This document shows, one piece after another, positions 509 to 5,914 of a DNA stretch of 64,000 nt. This stretch comes from Escherichia coli (lineage in GTDB: Bacteria; Pseudomonadota; Gammaproteobacteria; Enterobacterales; Enterobacteriaceae): assembly GCF_003334315.1 (NCBI RefSeq), contig NZ_QOWR01000003.1. The stretch is one strand, 5' to 3'. The notes below the pieces were generated by a model. The model saw only the letters and a program-made list of their open reading frames with translations, was not told the DNA's origin and did no database searches. Numbering within the stretch: the first letter of the stretch is position 1; every line of letters starts with the position of its first letter. The translations under genes were made by a program, and so were the position numbers.

Positions 509-2923
509 TCACCCCGCAAACTGCCTGAACAGCGCCTTACCCTTAACCAGTCGCGCACCCAGCCAGCCGCCGAAAAGCGACAGCAGCAGCGCTCCGCTGC
601 ACGGCAGAACAATCCACAATCGCCAGTCTGGCTCCCACGGAAAATCAAACACTTTCGCCTGCAACACTGCCAGCGCCGTTTCCGCACCAATTGCGGCCAC
701 CAGGCCGGAAACAAACCCAAGCATGGCGAACTCACACCACAACGTGGTACGCAGCAGTTTTTTCCCCGCACCGAGTGTGCGCCACACCACCAGCTCCTGA
801 TGACGCTGACGCATTCCCACCTGCACCTGTGCCAGCAACAGCAACATACCGCAGGCGGTGACCAGTACCACCATCACTTCCAGCGTCCGACTTACCTGCT
901 CCAGCACCTGACCGACCTGTTTTAAAATCGCGCCAATATCTAACAGGCTAATGGTCGGGAACTGGCGGTTGAGTTGTGTCAACATGCCGTTGCCATTCTC
1001 CCAGCGGAAACTGGTAAGCCAGCTCTGCGGTTGCCCGTCTAATGCCCCTTCAGGGAAAATAAAATAGAAATTAGGCCGCAGACTTTCCCAGTCCACTTTG
1101 CGCAGGCTGGTCACTTTAGCGCGGAACTCCTGGGTATCGCCCATAAAAGTCACGGTATCACCGAGGGCAACGTTTAAGCGTTTCGCCAGCCCCTCTTCCA
1201 TCGACACTTCATCGGCTTTTGGCGGCCAGTTACCGGCGACAATCGGATTATGATCGGGCCGCGTATTTTGCCAGGTAAGATTGAGTTCGCGGTTAAGCGC
1301 CTCATCTTCATTACCTTCTGTCGGCTTATCGTTAATCGCCGTCAGCCGCGCCCGCACCACCGGATAAAACGATTCCGGGACTATCTGATGTTCCGCGAGG
1401 AACGCTTTTAGCGGTGCTACCTGTTCTGTGGCGATGTTAATTAAAAAGTAGTTCGGGCTTTCTGGAGGTAGCTGCTGCTGCCAGCGGTCGAGCAGATCGC
1501 CACGCAACACCAGCAGCAGTGCCAGCAGCATAAAGGAGAGCGAAAATGCCGAAAGCTGACTTAACGTTGACCACGGCTGACGTAACAGGCGGCTAACCGC
1601 CAGGCGCAGAGGCAGCGATTTCAGCGTCATGCGGCGAAGTACATTCAGCAGCATCCAGCCCAGCACACCGCACAGCAAAGCCAGTACTACCGCGCCCGCC
1701 AGCACCGCCCAAAGCAGCATGCTGCCACCCATTAATCCGGCGAGCAGCAGCACAACCACCACACTGACAATCGGCAGATAAAACTTCAGCGGCCAGACGT
1801 TCGCTACCACATCATTACGTAATACGCGTAAAGGCTGCGTTGCCAGCAACAAGCGATATGGTCGTAGCCCCACCAGCAGCGAGATGACCGTCATGGTGCC
1901 AAGCGCCCACAGCCACGGCCAGAGGCTGGCTGGCGGTAGTGCAGCAGGCAGAACGGGCTTGAGCAGCACCATCAACACGTTTTCGAACAACAGGCCTATG
2001 GCCCCACCGGTAACGGCTGAAAGCGTCAGCACCATCAACCACTGACCGACGATTAGCTTACGCAGTTGCGCTCGCCCTGCCCCCAGCGTTTTGAGGATCG
2101 CCACCAGATCGTAGCGACTGCGACAGTAATGATTCATCGCTACCGCCACCGCTGCCACTGCCAGCAGCAAGGTCAGAAGCGCCGAAAGCAGCAGGAACTG
2201 TTGCGAGCGTTCCATCGATCGCCCCAGCGCGCCTTCGTCCTGTTCCAGACCGTACCAGCGTTGTTCGGGTTTAAGCTGAGGTAACAACCATTTCTCATAG
2301 CCGTCGAGCTGGTTCTCGTTGCCGCCGAATTTATAACGCCAGGTGACCCGACTCCCCGGCTGCACGGCTCCGGTTTTATCGACATCCGCCAGATTCATCA
2401 TCAGACGCGGAGCCATCTGGAAGGGGTTAAAACCGGAATCCGGTTCCTGAATCACTTCTCCGGCAATCCGCAAGGTGGCATCGCCCACGTCAATGGTGTC
2501 GCCCGTTTTCAGGTTAAGCAGTGCCATCAGGCGTGGGGCCAGCAATACGCTGCCCGCCTGCGGTTTCAGGCCAGGGGGATTAGTTTGCAGATCGCCATAC
2601 ATCGGGTAGATATCATCCACCGCTTTGACGTTCGCCAGCTGCGGTGTGTCGCCTGCAAAGGTCATTGTGGCGAAAGTCAGCTGCTTGCCGACTTTCAGGC
2701 CGCGCTTTTGCGCTTCCTCCAGCCACGCTTGCGGCACTTCGCGTGAACTGCGCAACGCCCGATCGCCCGCCATAAACTCACGGCTTTGCTGGCTTAAGCC
2801 CTTCTCCATGCGATCGCTGATATTGCCCAGCGCCAGCACGCAGGCCACCGCCAGGCTTAGCGCCAGCCAGACAATTAATAGCGACGGCGAACGCCATTCG
2901 CGCCAGAACCAACGTGCAATCAT
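509..2923 (-). CDS. ybbP: ABC transporter permease (FtsX-like)
   Basis: ORF track 804 aa, multi-TM protein; 4-nt overlap with upstream ybbA; length matches YbbP. Confidence 0.9.
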   Translation of the reverse strand: MIARWFWREWRSPSLLIVWLALSLAVACVLALGNISDRMEKGLSQQSREFMAGDRALRSSREVPQAWLEEAQKRGLKVGKQLTFATMTFAGDTPQLANVKAVDDIYPMYGDLQTNPPGLKPQAGSVLLAPRLMALLNLKTGDTIDVGDATLRIAGEVIQEPDSGFNPFQMAPRLMMNLADVDKTGAVQPGSRVTWRYKFGGNENQLDGYEKWLLPQLKPEQRWYGLEQDEGALGRSMERSQQFLLLSALLTLLLAVAAVAVAMNHYCRSRYDLVAILKTLGAGRAQLRKLIVGQWLMVLTLSAVTGGAIGLLFENVLMVLLKPVLPAALPPASLWPWLWALGTMTVISLLVGLRPYRLLLATQPLRVLRNDVVANVWPLKFYLPIVSVVVVLLLAGLMGGSMLLWAVLAGAVVLALLCGVLGWMLLNVLRRMTLKSLPLRLAVSRLLRQPWSTLSQLSAFSLSFMLLALLLVLRGDLLDRWQQQLPPESPNYFLINIATEQVAPLKAFLAEHQIVPESFYPVVRARLTAINDKPTEGNEDEALNRELNLTWQNTRPDHNPIVAGNWPPKADEVSMEEGLAKRLNVALGDTVTFMGDTQEFRAKVTSLRKVDWESLRPNFYFIFPEGALDGQPQSWLTSFRWENGNGMLTQLNRQFPTISLLDIGAILKQVGQVLEQVSRTLEVMVVLVTACGMLLLLAQVQVGMRQRHQELVVWRTLGAGKKLLRTTLWCEFAMLGFVSGLVAAIGAETALAVLQAKVFDFPWEPDWRLWIVLPCSGALLLSLFGGWLGARLVKGKALFRQFAG

Positions 2924-3606
2924 GCTTCCTCCTGCAACTGCCCGTTCACCAGCCGTAAGCAGCGGTCGCAGCGTGCCGCCAGTTGCAGGTCGTGGGTCAC
3001 CATAATCAACGTGGTGCCATGTTCACGGTTGAGGGAAAACAGCAGGTCGGCAATTTTATCGCCCGTCTGGCGGTCAAGGTTGCCGGTGGGTTCGTCGGCA
3101 AACAGCACATCAGGTCGACCATTAAAGGCTCGTGCCAGCGCCACTCGTTGCTGTTCACCGCCGGAAAGCTGTGCCGGAAGATGATCCAGACGTTTACCCA
3201 GCCCTAACTGTTCGAGCAACGCTTTCGCCCCGTTACGACTTTCCGCGCTACTCTCACCGCGCAGCAGAGCCGGAAGCTCGACGTTTTCCAGCGCGTTAAG
3301 GGTAGGAATTAACATAAATGACTGAAAAACAAAGCCGACGTGCTTCGCGCGCAACTTTGCCCGCGCTTCTTCGTCCATATTATGTAGCGGTTGTCCCACC
3401 AGACTCACTTCGCCACTGCTGCCGTCATCAAGCCCGGCGAGGATCGCCAGCAAGGTTGACTTACCCGATCCCGACTCGCCCACCAGTGCGATGGTCTCGC
3501 CACGTTTGACAACCAGCTCAACTCCGGTGAGGATGGAGAGTTCATGCTCCCCCTGACCGACGGACTTCTTAAGATGATGAACTTCAACAATGTTTTCCGC
3601 TGGCAT
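2920..3606 (-). CDS. ybbA: ABC transporter ATP-binding protein
   Basis: 228 aa; Walker A GESGSGKST and ABC signature LSGGEQQR visible in translation. Confidence 0.9.
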   Translation of the reverse strand: MPAENIVEVHHLKKSVGQGEHELSILTGVELVVKRGETIALVGESGSGKSTLLAILAGLDDGSSGEVSLVGQPLHNMDEEARAKLRAKHVGFVFQSFMLIPTLNALENVELPALLRGESSAESRNGAKALLEQLGLGKRLDHLPAQLSGGEQQRVALARAFNGRPDVLFADEPTGNLDRQTGDKIADLLFSLNREHGTTLIMVTHDLQLAARCDRCLRLVNGQLQEEA

Positions 3607-4200
3607 TTGCCCTTCCTGTTCCTGGTCCTGTTAACCTTCCGTGCCGCCGCAGCGGACACGTTATTGATTCTGGGTGATAGCCTGAGCGCCGGGTATCGAA
3701 TGTCTGCCAGCGCGGCCTGGCCTGCCTTGTTGAATGATAAGTGGCAGAGTAAAACGTCGGTAGTTAATGCCAGCATCAGCGGCGACACCTCGCAACAAGG
3801 ACTGGCGCGCCTTCCGGCTCTGCTGAAACAGCATCAGCCGCGTTGGGTGCTGGTTGAACTGGGCGGCAATGACGGTTTGCGTGGTTTTCAGCCACAGCAA
3901 ACCGAGCAAACGCTGCGCCAGATTTTGCAGGATGTCAAAGCCGCCAACGCTGAACCATTGTTAATGCAAATACGTCTGCCTGCAAACTATGGTCGCCGTT
4001 ATAATGAAGCCTTTAGCGCCATTTACCCCAAACTCGCCAAAGAGTTTGATGTTCCGCTGCTGCCCTTTTTTATGGAAGAGGTCTACCTCAAGCCACAATG
4101 GATGCAGGATGACGGTATTCATCCCAACCGCGACGCCCAGCCGTTTATTGCCGACTGGATGGCGAAGCAGTTGCAGCCTTTAGTAAATCATGACTCATAA
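3574..4200 (+). CDS. tesA: Acyl-CoA thioesterase I / lysophospholipase L1 (SGNH hydrolase)
   Basis: GDSLS motif and signal peptide in translation; start set at MMNFNN (ORF track starts 30 nt upstream at 3544). Confidence 0.85.
   Translation: MMNFNNVFRWHLPFLFLVLLTFRAAAADTLLILGDSLSAGYRMSASAAWPALLNDKWQSKTSVVNASISGDTSQQGLARLPALLKQHQPRWVLVELGGNDGLRGFQPQQTEQTLRQILQDVKAANAEPLLMQIRLPANYGRRYNEAFSAIYPKLAKEFDVPLLPFFMEEVYLKPQWMQDDGIHPNRDAQPFIADWMAKQLQPLVNHDS

Positions 4201-5017: not shown

Positions 5018-5914
<897 letters not shown>

Follow-up and report, generated by a model that had tools for sequence, protein, structure and literature searches.

Divergent tesA and ybbA overlap at their 5' coding ends in Escherichia coli and other Enterobacteriaceae, and the tesA promoter lies within ybbA

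The proteins YbbA, YbbP and TesA act in one complex, YbbA2-YbbP-TesA, with a stoichiometry of 2:1:1, and the overlap of tesA with the ybbA operon has been stated as support for a functional link between them (PMC12646458, 2025). In the ExcludonFinder report (PMC12288877, 2025), tesA-ybbA is given as one of 16 divergent excludons of E. coli MG1655, and 40% of divergent excludons are described there as overlapping p19-captured dsRNA. A further described arrangement is the bidirectional back-to-back promoter, which has symmetric -10 elements, start sites that diverge and RNAs that do not overlap (10.1101/2020.01.31.928960). Divergent overlaps make up 457 of 42,055 gene overlaps (~1%), and those longer than 60 bp were all judged to be misannotations (Pallejà et al., 2008; PMC2478687). 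From the K-12 annotation and the two papers of 2025, the overlap of tesA and ybbA is already known. What is added here is the conserved start that gives 30 nt of overlap, the footprint of an embedded promoter, the rejection of both a 63-nt and a zero overlap, and the spacings found in distant lineages.

In the window (the whole stretch of 64,000 nt analysed here) the gene order at the locus is rhsD, ybbP and ybbA on the minus strand, followed by tesA, ybbO and cnoX on the plus strand, and the stretch from 3200 to 4000 matches 5,417 of 5,426 complete E. coli genomes at 95-100% identity. A MacB/FtsX-type permease, an ABC ATPase and the SGNH hydrolase TesA are encoded together, in the order ybbP-ybbA/tesA, and the locus fits the YbbAP-TesA system, a Type VII ABC transporter with a lipid hydrolase. 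TesA scored 410 bits against its NCBIfam equivalog (cut-off 270) and YbbA 479 bits (cut-off 336), the latter with positions 1-228 of the 228 in the profile covered, and alignments to the profiles of the paralogues LolD, MacB and FtsE start from YbbA residues 5-7. PDB entries 9GE6-9GE8 contain a YbbA chain with the identical 228 residues, following a tag of 14 residues. With the equivalog matches, the solved structure of YbbA and orthologues in 80 species, both reading frames represent real, conserved proteins.

Other junctions between genes of the window show overlaps of more familiar kinds. On the same strand, tesA and ybbO overlap by 11 nt (4190-4200) and ybbA and ybbP by 4 nt (ATGA, 2920-2923); such short same-strand overlaps are the usual signature of translational coupling. 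The aes (+) and hemH (-) genes share 4 nt at their 3' ends (24322-24325), an overlap of the ordinary convergent type. The start of cnoX is ambiguous, as the longest ORF begins at 5024 (296 aa) and the PGAP and K-12 model at 5060 (284 aa).

The coding features and candidate starts at the tesA/ybbA junction are listed below.

2920..3606, minus strand: ybbA coding sequence, encoding the ABC ATPase of YbbAP, with its start ATG at 3606.
3577..4200, plus strand: tesA coding sequence from the conserved ATG at 3577, 207 aa, the PGAP start.
3577..3606, both strands: dual-coding head-to-head overlap, TesA residues 1-10 (MNFNNVFRWH) against YbbA residues 1-10 (MPAENIVEVH).
3544..3546, plus strand: upstream in-frame ATG, from which TesA would have 218 aa and the overlap 63 nt; not accepted as the main start.
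3607..3609, plus strand: in-frame TTG abutting the ybbA ATG, the start of a 197-aa TesA, rejected.

In K-12 MG1655, tesA is annotated at 519139..519765 on the minus strand and ybbA at 519733..520419 on the plus strand, an overlap of 33 nt that corresponds to window positions 3574..3606, exactly where it had been placed from the sequence by the initial annotation. The K-12 start of tesA is thus ATG 3574 (208 aa), and RefSeq/PGAP uses the second ATG, at 3577, which gives an overlap of 30 nt. The tesA ORF, which ends at 4200, contains in-frame ATGs at 3544, 3574 and 3577 and an in-frame TTG at 3607. Reading the ybbA ORF, its ATG (CAT at 3604-3606) is the earliest start following the upstream stop. 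Over the shared segment the first ten residues of TesA and the first ten of YbbA are encoded antiparallel, with the codon register in common.

To compare the start codons, the locus was taken from 80 species-level Enterobacteriaceae genomes, in which TesA is 86-100% identical, and counts were made for the 78 loci that aligned without gaps or stops over 3300-3900. Both the CAT that specifies the ybbA start and the tesA ATG at 3577 proved invariant (78/78 species each). Codon 3574 was ATG in 62 species and ACG in 16; codon 3544 was ATG in 42, GTG in 25, CTG in nine and TTG in two; and codon 3607 was TTG in 64, TGG in six, and CTG and GTG in four each. Since ATG 3577 is invariant and 3574 is ACG in 16 of the 78, the conserved overlap is that of 30 nt (3577..3606), and an overlap of 33 nt, from ATG 3574, is the possible form in E. 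coli. Thus, tesA is translated from ATG 3577, and possibly also from 3574, and ybbA from ATG 3606.

The geometry of the two N-termini points the same way. Taking the mature TesA N-terminus as Ala27 of the 208-aa form, its offset from ybbA Met1 was 46 nt in all but two of the 80 loci, which have a 6-nt duplication (L052) and a frameshift (L041). This distance amounts to 15 codons, and so a TesA signal peptide of more than 15 residues cannot be encoded unless the genes overlap. A downstream start for ybbA was ruled out, as the ORF has no further ATG, GTG or TTG from its ATG as far as codon 42, which immediately precedes the Walker A motif, and the CAT is present in 78/78. The same layout, ATGATG...GTTTTCCGCTGGCAT, was found in the more distant locus L082, where TesA identity is 70%. 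The TRAINSPOTTER supplements, which were searched for initiation-site evidence, have no entry for tesA or ybbA. Taken with the transcription start site described below, the comparison places the true starts of both tesA and ybbA inside the partner coding sequence, and the overlap is conserved among orthologues, being fixed in 78 of the 80 Enterobacteriaceae loci.

A few of these loci have peculiarities of their own. In L052 (Leclercia sp. 29361) the 6-nt duplication is in tandem, with ATTCTG occurring twice at the equivalent of window ~3625-3636; the TesA signal peptide thereby gains two residues in its hydrophobic core, and none of the other 80 species-level loci has a change of length around the starts. 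The ybbA gene of L041 (Citrobacter amalonaticus AUH_CA_2023_1) has an extra C in a run of Cs at window ~3550, which shifts the frame, and that of L026 (Leclercia adecarboxylata NCTC13032) appears to be disrupted, with 57% identity and three in-frame stops; these two disruptions are either homopolymer errors of assembly or pseudogenes. The locus of L057, filed as Chryseobacterium sp. 18061, is of enterobacterial type (identity to the E. coli proteins is 88% for TesA and 89% for YbbA) and nearly matches that of L062 (Citrobacter sp. 18056), a genome that came out of the same study; this suggests that the assembly is mislabelled or contaminated.

Thus, the 5' coding overlap of 33 nt originally described for this divergent pair agrees exactly with the K-12 annotation and has a conserved core of 30 nt, and none of the start codons compared in the 78 species does away with it. 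The arrangement had also been called unusual, and this holds both in general, with divergent overlaps accounting for ~1% of all overlaps (PMC2478687), and locally: the first 50 kb of the window contain 10 divergent pairs, of which tesA/ybbA, at -30 nt, is the only one to overlap, the other nine lying 69-261 nt apart.

An overlap of this kind leaves the transcription signals of each gene to be accommodated within the other, and for tesA these could be located precisely.

3506..3511, plus strand: -35 element of the tesA promoter, TTGACA, inside ybbA codons 32-34 (V V K).
3529..3534, plus strand: -10 element of the tesA promoter, GAGGAT, inside ybbA codons 25-26.
3542..3576, plus strand: tesA 5' UTR, with the transcription start site (TSS) at T3542, antisense to ybbA codons 11-22.

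The start site comes from Kim et al. (2012; PMC3415461), whose Table S1 records 45 reads for a tesA TSS at 519021(-) of NC_000913.2 and assigns it 32 nt of 5' UTR; the string of 51 nt given there as its upstream sequence ends at window position 3542. Coordinates were converted between versions.2 and.3 of the K-12 sequence with an offset of 776, in agreement with the gene coordinates. Kim et al. is the one dataset for this TSS, the Cappable-seq sites available for the region being those of the K-12 plus strand only. From T3542 it is 32 nt to ATG 3574 and 35 nt to ATG 3577, which puts the TSS 64 nt inside ybbA and 65 nt upstream of the TTG at 3607. The promoter itself, TTGACA-17-GAGGAT (3506-3534), falls wholly within ybbA, at about codons 22-34. 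Its -35 element, 17 bp 5' of the -10, was present in 78/78 species, including at three synonymous ybbA sites, and the -10 hexamer was AAGGAT in 53 species and GAGGAT in 25. The TSS and the conservation footprint together show that tesA is transcribed from a sigma-70-type promoter embedded in ybbA.

A consensus promoter scan of 3200-4000 had given no match; the tesA promoter was missed because its weak -10 has three of six matches and the tool requires at least four of six. Predicted RNA structure in the tesA 5' region was not significant (z = +0.9), and we found no inverted repeats or operator-like palindromes between 3440 and 3720 and no Rfam families at E<=1 between 2800 and 4400. The SMRT-Cappable-seq supplements contain no entry for tesA or ybbA.

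Synonymous codon entropy was calculated for 75 species that were free of indels across both genes. Codons 1-34 of ybbA averaged 0.35 bits compared with 1.14 for the rest (Mann-Whitney p=2.5e-11) and formed the lowest 34-codon window of the gene. The reduction was also evident for codons 11-34, outside the coding overlap (0.43 versus 1.09 bits; p=1.3e-7). Within the overlap, codons 1-10 had 0.02 bits in tesA and 0.14 bits in ybbA, the remainder of each gene being at ~1.0-1.1. The ybbA codons with zero entropy were 32-34, which cover the -35 element, 25 and 28-29 in the -10 region, and 10-13 and 17-18 in the proximal leader; those that varied were 30-31 in the spacer and 19-23 around the TSS, and values were normal from codon 35. 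In tesA, suppression extended over codons 1-10 and faded by about codon 19, in the region of the ybbA ribosome-binding site. Low synonymous variation at the 5' ends of genes has other causes, which usually span far fewer than 34 codons. Throughout the Enterobacteriaceae, then, promoter, 5' UTR and overlap alike are under purifying selection in addition to the coding constraint of ybbA.

For ybbA, a ribosome-binding site was evident and the candidate start sites were weak.

3610..3617, minus strand: Shine-Dalgarno-like AGGAAGGG of ybbA, inside the tesA signal-peptide codons P-F-L.
3761, minus strand: weak candidate ybbA TSS inside tesA, 5' UTR 155 nt (Kim 2012, 518802(+), 2 reads).
3948, minus strand: weak candidate ybbA TSS inside tesA, 5' UTR 342 nt (Cappable-seq, 518615(+), score 2.45; PMC4782308).
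3993, minus strand: weak candidate ybbA TSS inside tesA, 5' UTR 387 nt (Kim 2012, 518570(+), 2 reads).

The Shine-Dalgarno region, ACAGGAA(G/A)GG, was kept across species, and the tesA codons that lie over it (11-19) had low synonymous entropy. The score of the Cappable-seq candidate is near the threshold, and among the plus-strand sites covered no other follows 518615(+) up to 523635. A search of tesA in the 75 species for the footprint of a ybbA promoter revealed none beyond the Shine-Dalgarno region, and none at the candidate TSS at 3761. Transcription of ybbA can begin solely at sites in tesA or farther off, and its promoter would have to be more than 594 nt from the ATG to lie outside tesA. 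The read counts of Kim et al., 45 for tesA versus 2 for ybbA, indicate that the two promoters are used unequally. Thus, the proposal that both promoters sit inside the partner coding sequence is upheld for tesA by the TSS at 3542, the -35 and -10 elements in ybbA and the conservation footprint, and for ybbA by candidate sites that all lie inside tesA. The longer overlap of 63 nt, which had been offered as an alternative should the Met at 3544 be used, was abandoned, the codon being variable and the TSS at 3542 leaving a leader of 2 nt.

A perfect TATAAT also occurs on the plus strand at 4000-4005, in tesA codons Tyr142-Asn143 (numbering of the 207-aa form), where both two-fold-degenerate codons are without synonymous variation in the 75 species. 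This may act as an internal promoter directed toward ybbO (ATG 4190), and it adjoins the weak minus-strand TSS at 3993.

Beyond the Enterobacteriaceae sample, we examined 10 TesA cluster representatives with 41-70% identity, checking the ORF boundaries by hand. An ABC ATPase gene was divergently adjacent to tesA in nine of the ten; the tenth was a short contig with a different context. The start-to-start distances, negative where the genes overlap, were as follows.

L082: -33/-30 nt.
L083 and L096: -2 nt, as CATG.
L086: 0.
L097: -17 to +13, ambiguous.
L092: +11 to +17.
L091: +25.
L089/L090 and L095: +52 to +55.

The 30-nt coding overlap was thus present in all the enterobacterial loci sampled, and the remaining lineages of the sample have shorter overlaps or small gaps. 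Near-zero spacing of tesA and ybbA is widespread across the sampled lineages.

These results favour the interpretation (probability about 0.6) that the overlap is a genuine and evolutionarily fixed one between the genes of complex partners, and that the tesA promoter is predicted to hamper ybbAP in cis in the manner of a divergent excludon. One mark of the class is 5' transcript overlap between divergent neighbours, and tesA/ybbA shows it by both the literature and the geometry of the locus: in the ExcludonFinder report, overlapping transcripts of the pair were detected in no fewer than 50% of 58 RNA-seq samples (PMC12288877). The two transcription units would run face-to-face and, provided that the TSS at 3761 is genuine, some 220 nt or more of their 5' regions would be complementary. 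A moderately used tesA promoter would then be both an obstacle in cis and an antisense partner to a weak ybbAP transcript: polymerase at or leaving the promoter would impede ybbAP transcription, and the complementary 5' regions could pair, with cleavage of the duplex by RNase III. The expected outcome would be that ybbAP expression is kept low relative to tesA and that the two outputs are linked inversely. Since the start sites face each other and the pair is listed as an excludon, the coupling predicted is antagonistic interference rather than co-induction. The coupled regulation of thioesterase and transporter proposed in the initial annotation is thereby a suggestion, whereas the functional link between the products is established. 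Mutually exclusive expression of partners in one complex would be counter-intuitive.

Whether there is an overlap at all depends on the choice of tesA start, and two other choices were considered. Were tesA to start at TTG 3607 (197 aa) or later, the overlap would be an artefact of annotation, and this might seem to be encouraged by the short TesA models of 197 (or 194) aa in many database entries, P0066 and P0070-P0120 among them, and by K. pneumoniae KPN_00472, whose 594 nt equal the length of the 197-aa model, as well as by the finding that divergent overlaps of more than 60 bp were all misannotations (PMC2478687). However, the 30-nt overlap falls below that size class, and in 10 of 78 species the codon at 3607 reads TGG or CTG, against an invariant ATG at 3577. 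Initiation at 3607 would also reduce the signal peptide to 15 residues, with the charged n-region missing, and the tesA TSS would lie far upstream, at the distance given above. Moreover, the gene caller Prodigal forbids overlap between the 5' ends of genes, and many of the 197-aa calls from TTG 3607 arise because of this ban. We consider an artefact very improbable. The same can be said of a start at ATG 3544, giving a precursor of 218 aa: E. coli does have a Shine-Dalgarno-like GGAGAG 6 nt upstream, no species has an in-frame stop between 3544 and 3577, and some databases list 218-aa products. But with transcription beginning at 3542, the codon would lie 2 nt from the 5' end of the mRNA and the GGAGAG would be outside the transcript, and in the species where the codon is CTG or TTG an ATG is absent altogether, making this start scarcely credible. 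The truncation of TesA is nonetheless of practical consequence, in that gene callers that ban 5'-5' overlaps shorten the protein systematically and the error propagates into databases. 'Leaderless' TesA is widely engineered. Truncated models could mislead studies of it and of TesA export.

A more serious contender, although we think it rather unlikely, accepts the overlap as real and denies it any regulatory role, regarding it as something that start-codon drift and genome compaction produced and that then became frozen. In TesA the n-region, and in YbbA the residues before the first ABC beta-strand, would be permissive, so the N-termini could slide, and promoters once embedded in the partner gene would make the units inseparable. 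Spacings that range from -33 to +55 nt between lineages show that coding overlap itself is not required; the overlapped residues are the least constrained, with covariation of TesA N4/N5 and YbbA I6/V7; and the footprint and palindrome searches at the locus found no conserved ybbA promoter or regulator site. Yet drift alone sits uneasily with the tight head-to-head linkage in nine of ten lineages, at TesA identities down to 41-47%, with the invariance of the embedded tesA promoter in 78 species and with the transcript overlap in the RNA-seq data cited above (PMC12288877), and we infer that some interference in cis would be physically hard to escape with promoters that face each other. At the other extreme, the spacing of zero or less, which reaches out to TesA identities of 41-53%, may itself be a selected cis-device, in which the buried promoter and antisense RNA set the TesA:YbbAP ratio or act as a reciprocal switch. 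This is a speculative possibility, and we hold it to be distinctly unlikely. If true, it would mean that free periplasmic and transporter-bound hydrolase are made in different states, and that there is a conserved excludon between subunits of one complex. Should the face-to-face layout tune the TesA:YbbAP ratio, this would bear on the assembly of the newly described complex. Fixed overlap with predicted interference in cis remains our preferred reading.

Set beside the systems already described, the locus in the window shows no difference in kind from K-12 tesA (b0494) and ybbA (b0495), being the same locus with the same 33 nt. As with the divergent excludons of ExcludonFinder, transcription is face-to-face and the 5' regions are complementary, but in excludons it is the UTRs that overlap, the genes in E. 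coli lying 95 nt apart on average, whereas in tesA/ybbA the coding sequences overlap and there is no intergenic DNA. Bidirectional back-to-back promoters (10.1101/2020.01.31.928960) likewise give closely spaced divergent transcription; tesA/ybbA was rejected as an example because its start sites converge, 3542 (+) versus 3761 or beyond (-). The acrR-acrA pair, in this same window, is also divergent and its genes are functionally related; it represents the ordinary regulator/transporter type that shares an intergenic control region. The intergenic DNA between acrR and acrA carries both promoters and an operator. That interval is 141 nt, whereas for tesA/ybbA it is -30 nt and all the signals are within coding sequence. 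Thus, tesA/ybbA is among the few divergent coding overlaps to survive scrutiny, and the tesA promoter provides a clean natural case of a sigma-70 promoter selected inside a foreign coding sequence and visible at synonymous sites.
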